Positions 37,393 to 46,144 of a stretch of 64,000 bases of DNA are shown here, piece by piece; the stretch's first letter is position 1, and every line of letters starts with the position of its first letter. The DNA comes from Chloroflexota bacterium (lineage in GTDB: Bacteria; Chloroflexota; Limnocylindria; P2-11E): NCBI GenBank assembly GCA_016194865.1, contig JACQAT010000005.1, positions 12,358 to 76,357 on the forward strand. The letters are read 5' to 3'. The notes below the pieces were generated by a model. The model was not told where the DNA came from. It did no database searches and saw only the letters and a list, made by a program, of their open reading frames with translations. Both the position numbers and the translations under genes were made by a program.

Positions 37393-37529
37393 CGGGGATC
37401 AAATGAACCAAGTGGGGGATTTTCGCGTTCTTTAAGCACATACCCGCCACGCCGGGCGGGTCTGGCCGGTAGGCTATCGGTGGTGGGACAACGCGAAGCG
37501 TGCCGACTCGGATCATTGGGGGGACATTC

Positions 37530-38489
37530 GTGACGGACCTGAGCCAGCGCGCGAAGGCGGTCGTCGACAACGTCGAGCGCGTCATCTTCGGCAAGCACCA
37601 CGAGGTCGAGCTCGCCCTCGTCGCGCTGCTCTGCCGCGGCCACATCCTCGTCGAGGACGTGCCGGGCACGGGCAAGACCGTCCTCTCGAAGGCCCTCGCT
37701 CGCTCGCTCGGCTGCACGTTCCGGCGTATCCAGTTCACGCCGGACCTGCTGCCCTCGGACGTGACGGGCGTGTCCATCTATAACCAGCGCACCCAGGAGT
37801 TCCAGTTCCGGGCCGGCCCGGTCATGAGCCAGATCGTGCTCGCGGACGAGATCAATCGCGCGACGCCGAAGACGCAGTCCGCGCTCCTCGAGGCGATGGA
37901 CGAGCAGCAGGTCACCGTCGACGGCACGACCTATCCGCTGCCCGACCCGTTCCTCGTCCTCGCGACGCAGAACCCGATCGAGTACGAGGGCACGTTCCCG
38001 CTTCCCGAGGCGCAGCTCGACCGCTTCTTCCTCCGCCTCCAGCTCGGCTATCCGAAGGAGCGCGAGGAGGTCGCGATCCTCGACGCGCAGCGCGTGCAGC
38101 ACCCGCTCGAGACGATCTCGCAGGTGCTCAGCGCGGACGAGCTCCTCGACGCGCAGCTCCGCGTGAAGGACATCCACCTCGCCGAGCCCGTGAAGACGTA
38201 CGTCGTCAGCGTCGTCACCGCGACGCGGTCACATCCCGACGTGTACCTCGGCGCATCGCCACGCGGCTCGCTCGCGCTCGCCCGCGCCGCGCAGGCGTAC
38301 GCGGCGATCAACGGACGTGACTACGTCGTGCCCGACGACGTGAAGGCGCTCGCGGGTCCCGCGCTCGCGCATCGCCTCATCCTCCAGCCGCAGGCGCGGC
38401 TCAAGGATCTCGCCGCGACCACCGTCGTCGCCGAGGTGCTCGCCAGCGTTCCCGTGGAGCACGTCACCACCGCAGCAGCGCGCACCTAG
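37530..38489 (+). CDS. MoxR family AAA+ ATPase
   Basis: [50 protein letters not shown]. Confidence 0.95.
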
Positions 38490-38493
38490 GGCC

Positions 38494-39705
38494 ATGCGCC
38501 CCTGGCACTTCGCGGTGCTGTGGCTCGCGCTCCTCGTCACCGCGATCGCGAGCGGGGTGGACCTCCTGTCGTACCTCTCGTACCTGCTGCTCTTCGTCGG
38601 CGTGACGATGTGGGTGATCTCGCGGATGACGCTCGAGGGGCTCTCCGTGAAGCGCGCGCTCGGACAGGCGTACGCGCATCTTGGCGACACCATCGAGCTC
38701 ACCTACGAGCTTCGCAACGATCACCGCTTCGGCAAGCTGTGGCTCGAGATCTTCGAAGAGTCGAACTGGCCCGAACCGCTTCCCGGCCGCGTGCTCTCGA
38801 TCGCCGGCGGCGGCAAGACGCGTCGCTGGAAGGTCCTGGTGAAGGCCGCGCGCCGCGGGCGGTTCCACCTCGGTCCGATCGTGCTGCGCAGCGGCGACCC
38901 GTTCGGCCTCTTCCAGACCGAGCTGCGCGTGCCGTCGAACGCGCTGGTGCTCGTGTACCCGCGCGTGGCGCAGCTCCCGTTCTGGCAGCTGCCGGGTTCG
39001 TTCCTCGAGGGCAACGTCCTCACCGGGCAGCGCTCGCTCCAATCGACCTCGATGGTCATGGGCATCCGTCAATACCAGCCCGGTGACGCGGTGAACCGCA
39101 TCCACTGGCCGTCGTCGGTCCGCCACCGCACGCTCCAGGTGAAGGAGTTCGAGCTCGACAAGACCGCCGACCTGTGGATCTACCTCGACCTCGAGCGCTA
39201 CTGGCACCGCGGCCAGGGCGAGGAATCGACCGAGGAGCGCGCGGTGACCGTCGCCGCGAGCATCGTGCAGAAGGCGCTGCGCCAGCATCGCAACGTGGGT
39301 CTCGTCACCACCGGGACCCACGTCGAGGTGTTCCATCCGGACCGCGGCACCAAGCAGTTCGGCAAGCTGATGCAGTTCCTCGCCGAGGTGTCCGTCGCCG
39401 GATCGCGCGGGCTCGCCGAGACGATGATCGAGACGCTCCCGCGCCTGCGGCGCGGCGCATCGTGCGTGCTCATCACCCCGTCGCTCGACCGCGCGTGGGT
39501 GCGCCCCGCCGGCACGTTCCGTGAATCGTCGATCGCGACGCAGGCCGTCATCGTCGCGCCGCCGGTCGAGACCGACGAGCGCGATCGCGCCAGGCGCCAC
39601 GCGCTCTTCGGGGAGCTCGCCGTCGCCGGCGTGAAGGCCGCCTACCTCTCGCCCGGCTCCGCGGTCGAGGACCTGTTCCACGAAACGGTCGGGCAGACCG
39701 CGTAG
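38494..39705 (+). CDS. DUF58 domain protein
   Basis: RG...LGP...GDPFGL, RQYQPGD..RIHW, VKEFE; follows MoxR. Confidence 0.9.
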   Translation: MRPWHFAVLWLALLVTAIASGVDLLSYLSYLLLFVGVTMWVISRMTLEGLSVKRALGQAYAHLGDTIELTYELRNDHRFGKLWLEIFEESNWPEPLPGRVLSIAGGGKTRRWKVLVKAARRGRFHLGPIVLRSGDPFGLFQTELRVPSNALVLVYPRVAQLPFWQLPGSFLEGNVLTGQRSLQSTSMVMGIRQYQPGDAVNRIHWPSSVRHRTLQVKEFELDKTADLWIYLDLERYWHRGQGEESTEERAVTVAASIVQKALRQHRNVGLVTTGTHVEVFHPDRGTKQFGKLMQFLAEVSVAGSRGLAETMIETLPRLRRGASCVLITPSLDRAWVRPAGTFRESSIATQAVIVAPPVETDERDRARRHALFGELAVAGVKAAYLSPGSAVEDLFHETVGQTA

Positions 39706-41961
39706 ATGATCGCGACGGCGCTGCGCGCGCTGTTCCCGCCCATCGCGTGGTCGCGGCTGCGCTTCCGAGGCGGGCTCGTCGCGCTGCCGATCTTCGTCGT
39801 GATGCAGCTCGTCTACCCCGCGTCGCTCGAGCAGGCCGAGTGGGTCGAGGCGACCTCCCAGTTCGCCGGTCTGGCGCTCTTCGCGCTCGCGCTCGGCACG
39901 GTCATCGGCAACGGCCGGCTGTCCGCGCGGCGCGCCAGCCTCGTCGGCGTGGTCAGCGGGGCCCTCGCGGTGTTCCTCTTCACCCTCGGCGTGAGCGACG
40001 CGGGTCCGCTGCACGCCCGCGCCGCCGCCCTCGGCATCAGGGTGAACAACTACCTCACGCAGGTCCTCGCGGGCGAGGCCGCGAGCGATCCGACGGTCTT
40101 CATCCTGTTCCTCGGCGCGTCGGTGTGGGCCTCGACGTTCGTCGGGTCGTTCGCGCTCGCGCGCTCGAAGCGCCTGTGGGACGCGATCCTGCTCTCGGGG
40201 TTCTGCCTCGTGGTGAACACGTCCCTGGCGCTCACGTCGCTGCTGCAGGACCTCGTGGTCTTCACGGTCTGCGTGCTGCTGCTGCTCGTGCGCCTCCACA
40301 TGGTCACGCTGCAGGAGCGCTGGGCGCGGCAGAACATCGTGCCGACCGGCGAGATGGACTGGCGGCTGCTGCGCGGCGGCCTCACCTGGACCCTGGTCCT
40401 CGTGATCATGGCGGTCGCGACACCGCGCGTCGGCGCGGCCGAGCTCGTGAACAACGCGTTCGGCTCGTTCGAGGGCCCCTACCACCGCGTCGAGGCCGAG
40501 TGGCAGCGCTTCTTTGCCGGCGTCTCCGGACCGAGCCGCCTGCGCGGCGTGTCGTTCTCGGACTCGATCCGGCTCGGCCAGGCGCCGAACCTCGGCGACC
40601 GCGTCGTGCTCAACGTCGACGCCCCGGCGGGCCACTTCTGGCGCGCCGTCACCTACGACTTCTACACCGGTCAGGGCTGGCGCACGACCGAGCAGGACAA
40701 GGCCGACAGGATCGACCCGAGGTACAGCGGCCGCGAGAAGATCGACGTCACCTTCGACGTCGTCGTCCCGCACGCGAACATCCTGTTCGCGCCGAACGAG
40801 CCGACGAAGGTGAACATCCCGTTCCAGTTCCAGACGGGCGAGGATCGCAACTACTCGACCTCGCTCCACGCCGTGAACCGCGCGCAGGCCGAGGGCCCGT
40901 ACACCGTGACGGCGCTCGTCTCGACCGCGGACAAGGTGACGCTGCGCAAGGCCACGACCGCGTATCCGGCGTACATCAAGACGAAGTACCTCCAGCTGCC
41001 CACCAGCCTGCCGCAGCGCGTGAAGGACAAGGCGCACACGATCGCCGACGGCAAGGCGACGCCGTACGACAAGGCCGAGGCGCTCGAGACCTACCTGCGC
41101 CAGAACTACAAGTACTCGACCGTCGTCCGCGCGCCGCCCGCGGGCCGCGACCCGGTCGACTACTTCCTCTTCGACCTCAAGGAGGACTTCTGCGAGTACT
41201 TCGCGTCGTCCATGACCGTGATGCTGCGCGAGCTCGGCATCCCGGCGCGCATGGTCGAGGGCTTCTCGACGGGCACGTTCGATCCGGAGCAGGGCCGCTA
41301 CATCGTGCGCGAGCTCAACGCGCACGCGTGGGTCGAGGCCTACTTCCCGCAGTACGGCTGGATCGAGTTCGAGCCCACGCCGTCGGAGACGGTGTTCCCG
41401 CGCGTCGAGGACGTCACGTTGATCAACGACGGGAGCGCCGTGGTCGGTGAGAACGGTGCGGTCCGCGACGCCAACGACCCGGACGCGCTCGGGCGCGACG
41501 AGAAAGAGGGCGCGGGCCCGGACGGCAGCGACAGCAGCTTCGCCGGCGGCGTGCTGAACGTGGTGCGGGAGATCGACCCGCGCCCGGCCATCGCCGCGGT
41601 GCTGCTGCTCCTGCTCGGCCTGCTCGCGGCGTACGCGCGCTTCGAGCTGCGCTTCCGGGATCTCGCGCCGATCGACCGGGCATGGGCGAAGACGCGGCTG
41701 CTCGGCTCCTACCTCGGCCATGCCCCGGCCGCGTCGCAGACCACCTACGAGTACGCCGACTCTCTCGGTCGCGCCGTGCCGGATGCGCACGGCCCGCTGC
41801 GCGACATCGCGCACGCGCGGGTCGTGGACCGCTACTCGAGGTCGGGCGTGACCGACGTCGAGCTCGACGCCGTGGAGAACGCCTGGGGCCGCGTCGCCCG
41901 GGCGCTCATCGCGCTCGTGCCGCAGCGGATCGTGCGGGCCATCGCGCGCTTCGTCCACTGA
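39706..41961 (+). CDS. Membrane transglutaminase-like protein (TgpA type)
   Basis: Multi-TM N-terminus, FCEYFAS (catalytic Cys), AHAWVEAYF, GWIEFEPTP. Confidence 0.92.
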   Translation: MIATALRALFPPIAWSRLRFRGGLVALPIFVVMQLVYPASLEQAEWVEATSQFAGLALFALALGTVIGNGRLSARRASLVGVVSGALAVFLFTLGVSDAGPLHARAAALGIRVNNYLTQVLAGEAASDPTVFILFLGASVWASTFVGSFALARSKRLWDAILLSGFCLVVNTSLALTSLLQDLVVFTVCVLLLLVRLHMVTLQERWARQNIVPTGEMDWRLLRGGLTWTLVLVIMAVATPRVGAAELVNNAFGSFEGPYHRVEAEWQRFFAGVSGPSRLRGVSFSDSIRLGQAPNLGDRVVLNVDAPAGHFWRAVTYDFYTGQGWRTTEQDKADRIDPRYSGREKIDVTFDVVVPHANILFAPNEPTKVNIPFQFQTGEDRNYSTSLHAVNRAQAEGPYTVTALVSTADKVTLRKATTAYPAYIKTKYLQLPTSLPQRVKDKAHTIADGKATPYDKAEALETYLRQNYKYSTVVRAPPAGRDPVDYFLFDLKEDFCEYFASSMTVMLRELGIPARMVEGFSTGTFDPEQGRYIVRELNAHAWVEAYFPQYGWIEFEPTPSETVFPRVEDVTLINDGSAVVGENGAVRDANDPDALGRDEKEGAGPDGSDSSFAGGVLNVVREIDPRPAIAAVLLLLLGLLAAYARFELRFRDLAPIDRAWAKTRLLGSYLGHAPAASQTTYEYADSLGRAVPDAHGPLRDIAHARVVDRYSRSGVTDVELDAVENAWGRVARALIALVPQRIVRAIARFVH

Positions 41962-43401: not shown

Positions 43402-44292
43402 CTAGTGGCGGGGTGACGTCGGTCCTTCCCGGAGGAGGTCTACGACCGCGTCCGACATCTGTTGGCCCGCGAGATCCTCGTAGTGGGAGAACGCGGGCGA
43501 CGGATTGACCTCGAAGCAGTAAGGGGCGCCGTCGGCCCGGAACTTCAGGTCGAGCCCCGCGATCATCAGGCCGAGCTCAGCCGCCAGATGTCGACAGGCG
43601 TCCGCAACAGTGCTGTCAAGCTCATGTGGCGCGTAGCGCACGTGCGAACCGTAGCGCTGCGCATATCGATAGTCGATCGTATCGGTCTCGATCGCGGTCG
43701 CGAAGACGTCGCGACCGATGACGTGGACGCGCACATTCAACCCCTCGACGAATTCTTGGAACTGCACCGGCGACCATCGAACTCGGCTCAGATCCGCGTC
43801 TCTCGTCAGTTCGGTCACGATCGAGCGCACCGAGCTGATCGACTTGAACACCACCCGTGCGTGCTCACGAGCGAAGGCACGCACGCGGTCGGGGTCATTC
43901 GTTATCAGCGTGTCCGGCACGAGAAATCCCGCACGCGCGATCACCTGCAGCTGCCCAGGTTTCGAGTAGTTGGTTGCCATGAGCGAAGGTCGGTTCACGA
44001 CCAGAGCACCGGTGACTTCGAGCCAATCGGTGATCCGATCCACGAACCGTTGCGCGGCATGGTCCGTTGGTACCGGACGCTCGAGCCGCGCGTACGCGGC
44101 AGAGCGCTCCCCCAGCGGGAACGCAGCACCATCCAGCACCAGACACGCGTGGTCTGGTCCGTCGCCCTCCAGCCAGGCCCGGTCCGCAGGCTCATCCTGA
44201 TCCGCGAAGACGAAGGGAACAGATGCATCCTTGAGTGCCCGCGCGGTAGCCCGTACAGGGCCATCGCGGCCGCTGCCGAAGAGGAATATCAC
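43402..44292 (-). CDS. RimK-like ATP-grasp ligase (peptide maturase-like)
   Basis: VVNRP, SKPGQL, GFLVPDTLITNDP, VVFKS, FQEFVEG, VRVHVIG, DYR, GLDL, FEVNPSP. GTG 44292 in a GTGA overlap. Confidence 0.9.
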   Translation of the reverse strand: MIFLFGSGRDGPVRATARALKDASVPFVFADQDEPADRAWLEGDGPDHACLVLDGAAFPLGERSAAYARLERPVPTDHAAQRFVDRITDWLEVTGALVVNRPSLMATNYSKPGQLQVIARAGFLVPDTLITNDPDRVRAFAREHARVVFKSISSVRSIVTELTRDADLSRVRWSPVQFQEFVEGLNVRVHVIGRDVFATAIETDTIDYRYAQRYGSHVRYAPHELDSTVADACRHLAAELGLMIAGLDLKFRADGAPYCFEVNPSPAFSHYEDLAGQQMSDAVVDLLREGPTSPRH

Positions 44293-44990
44293 GATGCCGT
44301 TCGGGCGAGCTCGCGAAGGCGGGCCAGGAGCGCGTCTCCGCCAAGACGAAGGTCGGCGTCCAGCGACGCATCGGTGAATGTCCATCCCTCGGTACCGGCC
44401 ACGAGTCGGATCTCGACGAGTTCGGTCTGCGTACGTTGGCAGAGCGCCCGCGCAGCGTCTCGAAGCTCGGCGGGCAACTCGACTCCCACGGACTCGCCGT
44501 AGAGCAGCAGCGCGTACATCGTGGGCCGTTCCTCGGTGACCTCGATCCCGGCGTCCCATGGGTCGCGCGTCTCGAAGCCTGCACGCCGCGCGAGCGTTCG
44601 CCACTGCGCCGGCGAGCGATACGGGCCGCGCGGCCCGGAGCCGACAGGTCGGTTGAGCACGGGCCCTGGCAGGCAGTTCATCCAGCTCGCGAAGAGCGCG
44701 AGCGATTCCTCGTACGCATACTCGCGGTCGTCCTCAGTCGCAAGCGGCTGTGAGGGTGGGTGGTGGCGGTTCAGCACCAGACCGACGGTCTGCTCGGTGA
44801 GGTTCCGCCCGTCGGCGAGCTCGATGGTGAACGCATTCCGTTCGCCCGCGACCGTGTGCTCGATACGCAGAGCGCTTGCGAGCTCCCCTGAGCCCACGAG
44901 GTCGATGTCCGTGCCCATGGCTCGAAGCCGAAGATAGGCCCACAGAGCGCTCTCGTCTCGACTGTCGCAGATCACCAGAGCGCGGCGCAT
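44289..44990 (-). CDS. Degenerate ATP-grasp-like protein
   Basis: Pre-ATP-grasp-like N-terminus, VLNRP, ARRAGF; short, with no recognisable E-x-N motif. ATG 44990; translationally coupled to the ligase. Confidence 0.65.
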   Translation of the reverse strand: MRRALVICDSRDESALWAYLRLRAMGTDIDLVGSGELASALRIEHTVAGERNAFTIELADGRNLTEQTVGLVLNRHHPPSQPLATEDDREYAYEESLALFASWMNCLPGPVLNRPVGSGPRGPYRSPAQWRTLARRAGFETRDPWDAGIEVTEERPTMYALLLYGESVGVELPAELRDAARALCQRTQTELVEIRLVAGTEGWTFTDASLDADLRLGGDALLARLRELARTAS

Positions 44991-45012: not shown

Positions 45013-45705
45013 CTACGCGCTCGTGTCCCGCGCGTCCTTCCGCAGCCGGGCCGACTCATCGCGATCCCGCAGCTCGGCCGCCACCGCGAGCAATGCGGCG
45101 CTGCTCGGATCCGCAGGCGTAGGTCCGACCCGCGGCCGCAACGTCGCGTCTATGAAGTGACGCAATTCGCCGCGCGCACTCGGCGTGTCGCCATCCTTGC
45201 CCTTGTCGCTGCTGTCCTTCGTGCTGTCCTTCGTCTTATGCGGGCCCTCGGTCGGGTCCTTGTCGGCGGAGTCCTTGTCGTCCTTGCTCGCCTTCGTGCG
45301 AAGCGCGCCTTGTTCACGCGGTCCTTTTTCGTCTGGCTTATCGCCAGGCTTGTCACGGGACTTGTCGTCAGGTTTATCCCAACTGTCGAGCTTGTCGCCC
45401 GGTTTCTCTTTGTCCTTGTCAGTCTTATCCCCGGGCTTCTCGAATGGCTTCTCCGGCCTCGCGCTCGCGAACGGGAGCTCCGCCGCCTCACGCTCCTTGG
45501 GCTTGTCTCCGTCCTTCGTCTTGTGCGGACCCTCGCTCGGGTCCTTTGGGCCTGGATCCGTGATCGGCCGTGGAGGCTGTTCTCGCGCTTTCTCCGATAC
45601 CTTGTCTCCGTCCTTCGTCTTGGGCGGACTTTCCCGCGGATCCTTGGGTGGATCCTCACGGCCCTTCTCGTGCGGCACCTTGGCAAACCGAGCCTGGCTG
45701 GCCAT
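45013..45705 (-). CDS. Repetitive Lys/Asp/Glu/Pro-rich protein, candidate ATP-grasp substrate (precursor)
   Basis: GGGAAAGGA RBS before ATG 45705; 230 aa; KDPxExPxKTKD three times and many DK units; first gene of the ATP-grasp cassette. Confidence 0.7.
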   Translation of the reverse strand: MASQARFAKVPHEKGREDPPKDPRESPPKTKDGDKVSEKAREQPPRPITDPGPKDPSEGPHKTKDGDKPKEREAAELPFASARPEKPFEKPGDKTDKDKEKPGDKLDSWDKPDDKSRDKPGDKPDEKGPREQGALRTKASKDDKDSADKDPTEGPHKTKDSTKDSSDKGKDGDTPSARGELRHFIDATLRPRVGPTPADPSSAALLAVAAELRDRDESARLRKDARDTSA

Positions 45706-45823
45706 CTCTGATCCTTTCCCGGCGCTGGCGCGCCCGAAACCCACGCGCAAAGGGGTGGGCTTGACCGCTACGTCGTGAGCACCGAGGACAATAGGACCAG
45801 CGTCAAGTTCAACGTAGCGAGAG

Positions 45824-46144
45824 CTACGGTCGCTCCTCCTCGTCGTCGCCGTCGTCGTCGGACTCGAACTCGTCGGAGTAGAAGCCGAGCTCCTCGCCCT
45901 TGAACACCGTGACCAGGAAGTCCTCGCGCTCGGGGTCGTGCGTCTGCACGAGCTCCTCGTCGAGCTGGTCGATCAGCTGCTGGAGCTCGTCGTCCTGGAG
46001 GTCCACCTCGAGGAGCAGCGTCGCATTGACCTCGAAGCGGCCGTAATGCAGGTCCACGCGGCCGATGCGGCGCGCGCCGCCGTAGATGGCGAACACCTCG
46101 CTCGCCTCGGTGCGGACCGCGCGCTCGAACCTCGCTGCTTCCAT
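45824..46144 (-). CDS. Hypothetical acidic protein (106 aa)
   Basis: ATG start after a TAGAGT -10-like box, host-like codon usage, FER..RT..SE..GRVDLHY pattern. Confidence 0.75.
   Translation of the reverse strand: MEAARFERAVRTEASEVFAIYGGARRIGRVDLHYGRFEVNATLLLEVDLQDDELQQLIDQLDEELVQTHDPEREDFLVTVFKGEELGFYSDEFESDDDGDDEEERP

Follow-up and report, generated by a model that had tools for sequence, protein, structure and literature searches.

Can a ribosomally made graspetide precursor be presented to its ATP-grasp ligase from the C-terminal side? This question is raised by a gene for a Lys- and Asp-rich protein of 230 residues at 45013..45705 on the minus strand of a 64,000-nucleotide stretch of a Chloroflexota genome (GenBank assembly GCA_016194865.1, contig JACQAT010000005.1, positions 12,358 to 76,357). 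We call this whole stretch the window, and coordinates refer to it unless another locus is named. An original prediction, made from the DNA alone, had described the protein as a precursor with repeated Lys/Asp cores that might be recognised through a C-terminal follower instead of the N-terminal leader typical of graspetides. Our analysis gives a probability of roughly 0.6 that a graspetide-like cassette of three genes (substrate, pseudo-ATP-grasp, ATP-grasp) has this protein as its ribosomal substrate and that a C-terminal follower guides it. Judged from sequence, there is a high probability that the adjacent ATP-grasp pair acts on the protein. That the tail acts as a follower is a proposal, well supported by comparison, namely by the order of the elements, by the conservation of the motif and by N-terminal counterparts in other precursors.

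A recurring three-gene cassette

The precursor gene is followed by ORF-B (44289..44990, minus strand), which encodes 233 residues, and then by a gene for a graspetide-type ATP-grasp ligase of 296 residues (43402..44292, minus strand). The ligase starts with a GTG at 44292, and the resulting GTGA overlap of its start codon with the ORF-B stop codon (44289..44292, minus strand) points to translational coupling. The same 4-nt start/stop overlap was found in 14 of the 17 other loci in which the start could be placed.

ORF-B is rare, with five proteins including the window's own in a word-indexed search. In total we analysed 30 ORF-B loci: 27 on metagenome contigs, one in an Acidobacteria metagenome-assembled genome (L001), one from the window's phylum (L032) and the window itself. 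The order precursor, ORF-B, ligase recurs in 29 loci besides the window. Using phmmer, a ligase was detected directly downstream of ORF-B in 27 of the 30 loci, and in L013 and L020 the contig breaks off after the N-terminal part of the ligase.

Within the window's phylum the distribution of the cassette is patchy, since ORF-B matches at E<=1e-3 were obtained in 8 of 401 sampled genomes (the window's included), with a strong match in one other genome only (G063); the weak matches include L035-L038. A scan of the genome collection with the ligase gave three loci, and of the two examined (L001 and L002) only L001 holds the cassette. In L002, from a haloarchaeon, the ligase stands in another context, with neither ORF-B nor a Lys-rich gene. 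L033 and L034 were likewise rejected as cassettes: they contain pairs of ATP-grasp-like genes and no Lys-rich gene within the 1.5-kb flanks. In both, a longer ORF-B-like paralogue of 297-377 aa lies directly upstream of the ligase (892-2022 and 30-1661 in L033, 1075-1965 and 36-1079 in L034, all on the minus strand), and these pairs may be less reduced forms of the ORF-B/ligase pair.

A conserved motif behind the Lys- and acid-rich region

The gene upstream of ORF-B was readable in 22 loci. Since L023 duplicates L021, 21 proteins were examined. All 21 contain a stretch dense in Lys and Asp/Glu and then the motif [FY][IVL]x4[RH]P, 21-57 residues from the C-terminus. Its strict form, F[IVL]x4RP, is present in 20 of them, L027 having His in place of Arg, and a heptad-like helix usually stands between the Lys/acid stretch and the motif (about 13 of 18 aligned tails). 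The motif is interrupted by the contig end in L028 and was not viewable in seven loci (L007, L016, L018, L022, L026, L029 and L030). All 18 non-redundant aligned tails have the Phe and the Pro, and 17 have the Arg.

A profile built from these 18 tails and searched against 1.84 billion representative proteins matched 449 protein clusters at E<=1e-3 (90 at E<=1e-10) and recovered the window precursor with an E-value of 3.8e-11. The strict motif was present in 148 of the 149 best other matches, and in 145 of these 148 no more than 90 residues separate it from the C-terminus (median 48). A search for the motif near ATP-grasp genes had been set beforehand as a test of the original prediction, and both the readable upstream proteins and the top profile matches bear it out. 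The family consensus reads F-I-x-x-[ED]-L-R-P-D-L-S-x-G-A-L. The exceptions to the C-terminal position are what is probably a read-through gene call, and proteins in which the motif recurs as a second, degenerate copy. The motif occurs twice in P0130, P0082 and P0147; P0130 has the full motif at its N-terminus, followed by Lys/Asp repeats and a degenerate C-terminal copy, and its sequence gives the impression of a form halfway between the leader and the follower order.

We compared Lys density on the two sides of the motif for the profile matches with at least 100 residues upstream of it (n=108). At least 5 Lys per 20 residues were found upstream of the motif in 107 of the 108 matches versus 45 downstream, and in 18 matches at most one Lys follows the motif. 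Since upstream Lys-dense stretches are found in all matches except one and downstream stretches in fewer than half, the near-universal order is repeats first, motif second. Of the repeated Lys/Asp cores that had been proposed, it is the Lys/acid density that is conserved family-wide, and not the particular 15-residue unit seen in the window. Spacing statistics gave no single family-wide distance from Lys to acid, with region limits that are too loose for multi-domain proteins.

The ATP-grasp ligase and its reduced paralogue

Among NCBIfam models, the ligase matched TIGR04187 best (1.4e-34, a match that spans only residues 197-391 of the 400-residue ligase ORF), followed by MvdD (4.7e-18) and MvdC (3e-15). 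Its closest match among PDB sequences was PsnB (2.3e-22), ahead of PruB, MdnC, CdnC, MdnB and AMdnB. The ligase retains the catalytic signature: the ATP-binding Lys of YKS, D-Y-R and the Mg-binding E-x-N are all kept and are invariant in 18 of 18 homologues. The D-Y-R loop aligns with D-F-R of PsnB, and both the residues that bind ATP and the D-F-R loop are named as critical for graspetide synthetases in a recent survey (PMC13097080). By these sequence features the ligase belongs to the MdnB/MdnC/PsnB lineage of graspetide macrocyclases.

ORF-B, by comparison, had no match in Pfam, NCBIfam or PDB sequences. A profile-profile comparison with the ligase (hhalign, profiles of 25 and 18 sequences) aligned the two over 235 columns with 98.4 % probability and an E-value of 1e-14. 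ORF-B has two large deletions, one taking out the central domain that carries the YKS Lys and the other the D-Y-R loop; E-x-N is also lost. The AlphaFold model of ORF-B (pLDDT 93.0, pTM 0.87) gave AMdnB, MdnB, MdnC, PruB, CdnC and PsnB as best PDB folds (E 7e-10 to 1e-7), ahead of LysX, GshB and RimK. Profile comparison and predicted fold thus identify ORF-B as a shortened and, by sequence and model, catalytically dead paralogue of the ligase, and we propose that it is a partner subunit. Predicting a three-chain complex of ligase, ORF-B and a 77-residue tail, each with its own alignment, did not discriminate, since a control with the ligase replaced scored equally high.

The probable precursor protein

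The precursor gene is a single open frame of 230 codons plus stop. An AAAGGA sequence (45712..45717, minus strand), read as Shine-Dalgarno-like, lies 6 nt ahead of its ATG. The protein is rich in Lys, Asp and Pro, and the translation of the minus-strand frame (D 35, K 34, P 30, E 18, T 12, S 17, C 0) reproduces exactly the Lys and Asp counts and the lack of Cys that had been estimated by hand. The claimed absence of a signal peptide agrees with the translation as well, in which a hydrophobic N-terminal segment is not visible. Lys makes up 14.8 % of the precursor versus 2.24 % of nine pooled neighbouring genes. The GC content by codon position is 67/50/77 % in a window of 69 % G+C.

Residues 12-178 (45172..45672, minus strand; K32 D29 E15) form a Lys/Asp-dense, Pro-rich region that is probably disordered and is the proposed site of cross-linking. 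It includes the three copies of a 15-aa unit (45601..45645, 45502..45546 and 45217..45261, minus strand), all of which translate as originally described, and a (P/G/D)DK block, placed approximately between 45262 and 45501 on the same strand. The repeat structure is non-random: the protein contains 10 non-overlapping pairs of 15-mers with at least 11 identities, a number reached in none of 300 composition-preserving shuffles (maximum 0). Synonymous differences between the three copies had been taken to imply selection at the protein level. This argument did not hold. Per repeat pair, 2 codons differ synonymously versus 3, 5 and 3 non-synonymously, and purifying selection is therefore not demonstrated. 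That the precursor is a real coding gene is suggested by the conservation of its family, and not by the codon differences between its repeats. Counted from Lys, acids are enriched at +3 and -1, and KxxD-type spacings show the highest enrichment in the window protein.

In the window, the family motif F-[IV]-x4-R-P takes the form HFIxxxLRP by translation and alignment (45133..45159, minus strand), and this copy is the proposed recognition motif of the follower. It lies 47 residues from the C-terminus, and only one Lys comes after it. A structure model of the last 77 residues (45016-45246; mean pLDDT 71.7) left the Lys/Asp-rich part unstructured and predicted an amphipathic helix after the motif (residues 47-76 of the segment, 45019..45108, minus strand). 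This agrees with the helical-looking tail noted at the outset, as the block of the last ~30 residues is modelled at pLDDT 85-96.

Searches of Pfam and NCBIfam with the precursor gave no match, and a word-based homologue search with the whole protein returned only itself among 1605 candidates. Only synteny and the tail profile reveal the family.

The tail on larger proteins

The part ahead of the repeats varies. It is absent in the window, L006, L013 and L025, comprises a Nal1/trypsin-like domain in six loci and a subtilase in L011, and weakly matches tyrosinase in L024, BNR in L027 and a carboxypeptidase-regulatory-like domain in L021. Scores for these domains were mostly at or below Pfam cutoffs, the subtilase excepted. 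For a broader view we tallied N-terminal domains (E<=1e-4) in the 53 tail-profile matches of at least 250 aa. Ten had a Nal1/trypsin-like domain, six a subtilase, two an astacin (up to 7e-53), two a TIG and one a lectin domain, and no N-terminal domain was found in the remaining 32. As judged by these sequence matches, the tail is often attached to proteases of three catalytic classes with unrelated folds (trypsin, subtilisin and astacin). A crude hydrophobicity screen flagged a signal-peptide-like N-terminus in 1 of 102 Met-initiated matches, so most tail proteins look cytoplasmic.

In the loci, no further gene recurred in at least three non-redundant cases, the one exception being a small NAL1_N-like ORF that precedes some of the protease-type substrates. 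This ORF lies just ahead of protease-type tail genes at 2201-2491 in L001 and at 1899-2231 in L005 (plus strand), and may have arisen from the protease by splitting or duplication.

A tentative and rather doubtful extension of these observations is that the cassette would be a widespread protein-tagging system and not a route to small-peptide natural products. In it, a portable C-terminal module of repeats and follower would sit on full-size cytoplasmic enzymes, the dead ATP-grasp would act as receptor and its active partner would staple the tail with isopeptide rings. The tagged enzymes would then be proteases of the trypsin fold, the subtilisin fold and the astacin type, together with a tyrosinase-like protein and others, and the window protein would be a free form of the tail. 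For the attached enzyme, stapling could mean regulation, stabilisation or self-inhibition.

Proposed mechanism and alternatives

We propose that the C-terminal ~50 residues, comprising motif and helix, are the follower and dock the substrate on a complex of ATP-grasp and pseudo-ATP-grasp. The active ligase would phosphorylate Asp/Glu side chains in the disordered region upstream, and Lys amines, possibly also Thr/Ser hydroxyls, would attack the activated acids. The expected outcome is a series of many small side-chain macrolactam (isopeptide) or lactone rings, repeated along the disordered region, which would yield a polypeptide stapled many times over and resistant to proteases. ORF-B may serve as non-catalytic scaffold, as activator or as follower receptor. 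By analogy, the +3/-1 acid enrichment of the window protein fits KxxD-type rings like those of MyxF.

Several observations weigh against this interpretation. The ligase scored 119.7 bits against TIGR04187 (the GRASP_SAV_5884 subfamily) and did not reach the curated cutoff of 350, and an initial shallow comparison of the ORF-B and ligase profiles, based on six sequences, gave a probability of 8.7 % only. One locus, L026, holds just a ligase remnant of ~40 residues. The locus of the window is contained in four DNA runs from one groundwater study, and no RNA run is listed with it. The window motif diverges from the family consensus just after Arg-Pro, with Gly-Ala-Leu displaced, and by this departure the window protein is a divergent family member. 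Most relatives show a period-3 K-[DE]-x pattern, which by analogy offers i,i+4 pairs like those of corallotide, versus the +3/-1 spacing in the window; since the spacing differs in this way, ring positions are not predictable from sequence. Finally, 45 of the 108 relatives are also Lys-dense after the motif, and some have a conserved N-terminus; the last two points are the starting points of the alternatives considered below. With regard to L026, we observed that the remnant (within 735-1930) ends at a stop after ORF-B and is followed by a sigma-factor-like gene, so that a decayed cassette or an assembly join are both possible.

The C-terminal motif and helices could serve oligomerisation, localisation or cleavage, with the ligase reading the repeats or an N-terminal signal. 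The heptad-like helix ahead of the motif in most aligned tails would suit such a role, as would a second, N-terminal signal in the substrate, which is possible by sequence: M-x-S-K-x-F-x-E-K starts 18 of 68 Met-initiated stand-alone matches (120-300 aa; first ~12 residues). All 18 of these proteins belong to a tail subfamily ending in ...G-A-L-K-Q-E-P-D, and the N-terminus of the window protein is only loosely similar. However, the motif holds the leader position in other graspetide precursors of the survey table (see below), its invariant aromatic residue has a parallel in the Phe that is key to the plesiocin leader, and the fused relatives have unrelated N-terminal domains and hence no common N-terminal signal. 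We consider this alternative unlikely.

The motif might instead be an ordinary leader, the core being the short Lys/Asp helix that follows it and the upstream Lys/acid region a spacer or a part with some other role. Since the segment after the motif is Lys-dense in 45 relatives, the motif could act as a leader for a short C-terminal core in those proteins; many of them show a recurring Lys/Asp pattern there, and graspetide cores normally come after the leader, as described in PMC8939145. But 18 of the 108 relatives have no or one Lys after the motif, as does the window protein with one, and L021, L024 and L020 have merely 5-12 residues past the 16-residue motif window, none of them Lys. With the upstream Lys-dense stretch present in 107 of the 108 as well, such a leader is quite unlikely.

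Returning to the follower-guided cassette, its chemistry could be of another kind, namely RimK-like addition of amino acids to side chains or termini, or intermolecular cross-linking. RimK-family models match the ligase too, though more weakly, the high density of Lys and acids would suit intermolecular cross-linking, and ThfB was reported to be able to cross-link protein dimers (PMC13003496). Yet both the ligase sequence and the ORF-B fold match graspetide macrocyclases well ahead of RimK, LysX and GshB, and the D-[FY]-R loop that is named as critical for graspetide synthetases is invariant, which makes a different chemistry distinctly improbable. That an unrelated low-complexity protein adjoins the ATP-grasp genes by chance would agree with the missing Pfam and NCBIfam matches and the self-only word-based search, but is scarcely credible, being contradicted by synteny, with the gene order recurring in 29 other loci and the motif in every readable upstream protein.

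Neighbouring genes

A very acidic ORF of 106 aa lies directly upstream of the precursor gene (45824-46144, minus strand); it had no match in Pfam or NCBIfam, and the other loci have nothing equivalent. Separated from the cassette by two genes and about 1.4 kb, 37500-41961 (plus strand) encodes a MoxR AAA+ ATPase, a DUF58 protein and a 751-aa TgpA-type transglutaminase-like membrane protein. Transglutaminase-fold proteins have been reported near other graspetide groups in the survey cited above (PMC13097080), and in the related loci the trio does not recur. Genes for a 2OG oxygenase and a beta-lactamase, conserved in graspetide group 15, neither flank the cassette nor recur in the loci.

Comparison with known graspetides

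The window system has three sequence features by which graspetides are recognised, an ATP-grasp ligase of the respective lineage with its catalytic residues and an adjoining precursor with repeats rich in Lys/Thr/Ser and Asp/Glu; it departs from them in that the recognition motif is C-terminal and not part of an N-terminal leader. Leader motifs are described as N-terminal by Makarova et al. (PMC8939145), and the follower-type terms searched for do not occur in the text of that paper. More generally, graspetide biosynthesis is described as leader-first, and our literature searches found no natural follower; the sole case of C-terminal guidance in the papers searched was an engineered construct from 2026. 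In this construct, ThfB was still active when the ThfA leader was moved to the C-terminus as an 'unnatural C-terminal leader' (PMC13003496). As proposed for the window, the synthetase is guided there from the C-terminal side, and the minimal element contains Arg-Pro (RPFG). Unlike the window system, however, engineered ThfA is man-made and carries ester rings and an aspartimide.

Microviridin and plesiocin resemble the proposed system in that one recognition element serves the distributive modification of several repeated cores and a single aromatic leader residue is its main anchor; a single leader Phe (Phe15) in a hydrophobic pocket of PsnB dominates the binding of plesiocin. They differ in having this element at the N-terminus (PFFARFL in microviridin, Phe15 in plesiocin) and in Thr/Ser core motifs that are absent here. 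Neither a PFFARFL-type leader nor the core pattern TxKxPSDx(D/E)(D/E) was found in the window translation.

Two known systems resemble the window in precursor size or in partners, and repeated Lys-Asp or Lys-Glu lactams formed by their ligases have been established by experiment. Corallotide (CorA/CorB, group 15) shares with the window a protein-sized precursor (~22 kDa) with repeats, and its TIGR04187-type ligase depends on a partner protein, as is proposed for the window. CorB makes five Lys-Asp isopeptides on KxxxD units of the 22-kDa precursor and is activated by CorC. In contrast to the window, recognition depends on a helical N-terminal domain (residues 1-86), and the partner is a 2OG oxygenase, not an ATP-grasp paralogue. 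Such a paralogue pair is known from myxomiditide, where MyxD2 is inactive alone and works with MyxD1, and where MyxF makes lactams on tandem (KxxE)n units. Here the differences to the window lie in the microviridin-type N-terminal PFFxRFx leader, the TxKxPSDx(D/E)(D/E) core and the shortness of the peptides.

The closest counterparts are found in the survey by Carter, Ramesh, Saad, Mubarik & Mitchell (ACS Chem Biol 2026, PMC13097080), which tabulates 21,584 predicted precursors in 43 groups, with group clusters defined in a ligase similarity network at an alignment score of 70. In the table portions compared, rows of group 32 resemble the window family in that Lys/Asp/Glu repeats precede the same motif, which stands close to the end. 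The sources of these rows are Acidobacteriota, Bacteroidota, Chloroflexota, Actinomycetota, Myxococcota and Pseudomonadota; many rows give two neighbouring 'synthetase' accessions, and one row is nearly identical to P0102, a match of our tail profile. The architecture of the window precursor matches group 32 by sequence, a correspondence at the level of precursor rows. The family is thus already catalogued bioinformatically. The group 32 clusters are predicted, none being characterised, and the main text, as far as it was available, gives only 'diverse families of neighboring proteases'. Proteases appear there as neighbours, whereas in our loci they are N-terminal domains of the tail-bearing protein itself. 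Neither 'follower' nor the wording 'group 32' is used in the main text, and the main text and table portions at hand do not describe the inverted order, the pseudo-ligase partner or the fusions to full-size enzymes.

If true, our interpretation would add a family of at least 449 sequence clusters that are guided by a follower in nature, and would imply that naturally occurring ATP-grasp macrocyclases take their guidance from both sides. The recruitment of a pseudo-enzyme paralogue as obligatory partner would be a clean example of its kind, and a ready-made C-terminal tag would become available for enzymatic stapling where the N-terminus must remain free. With the tail fused to proteases of three unrelated folds, graspetide chemistry may control or protect enzymes, beyond its use in secreted inhibitors.

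The same table also contains the opposite arrangement. In the rows compared, precursors from Bacillus thuringiensis, from Streptomyces and from a Nitrospirota member of group 39 carry F-I-x4-R-P-D-L at the N-terminus, followed in the first two by Lys/Asp/Glu/Gly-rich repeats, and the Streptomyces and Bacillus rows all end in a second, short hydrophobic-Arg-Pro-Ile motif at the extreme C-terminus. These precursors, compared as rows only, have the motif first and the repeats second, which is the canonical leader order, whereas the window family has the reverse. Since the same motif stands N-terminally ahead of similar repeats elsewhere, it is probably a recognition sequence whose position is inverted in group 32, and this is the strongest comparative argument for a follower in the window family.

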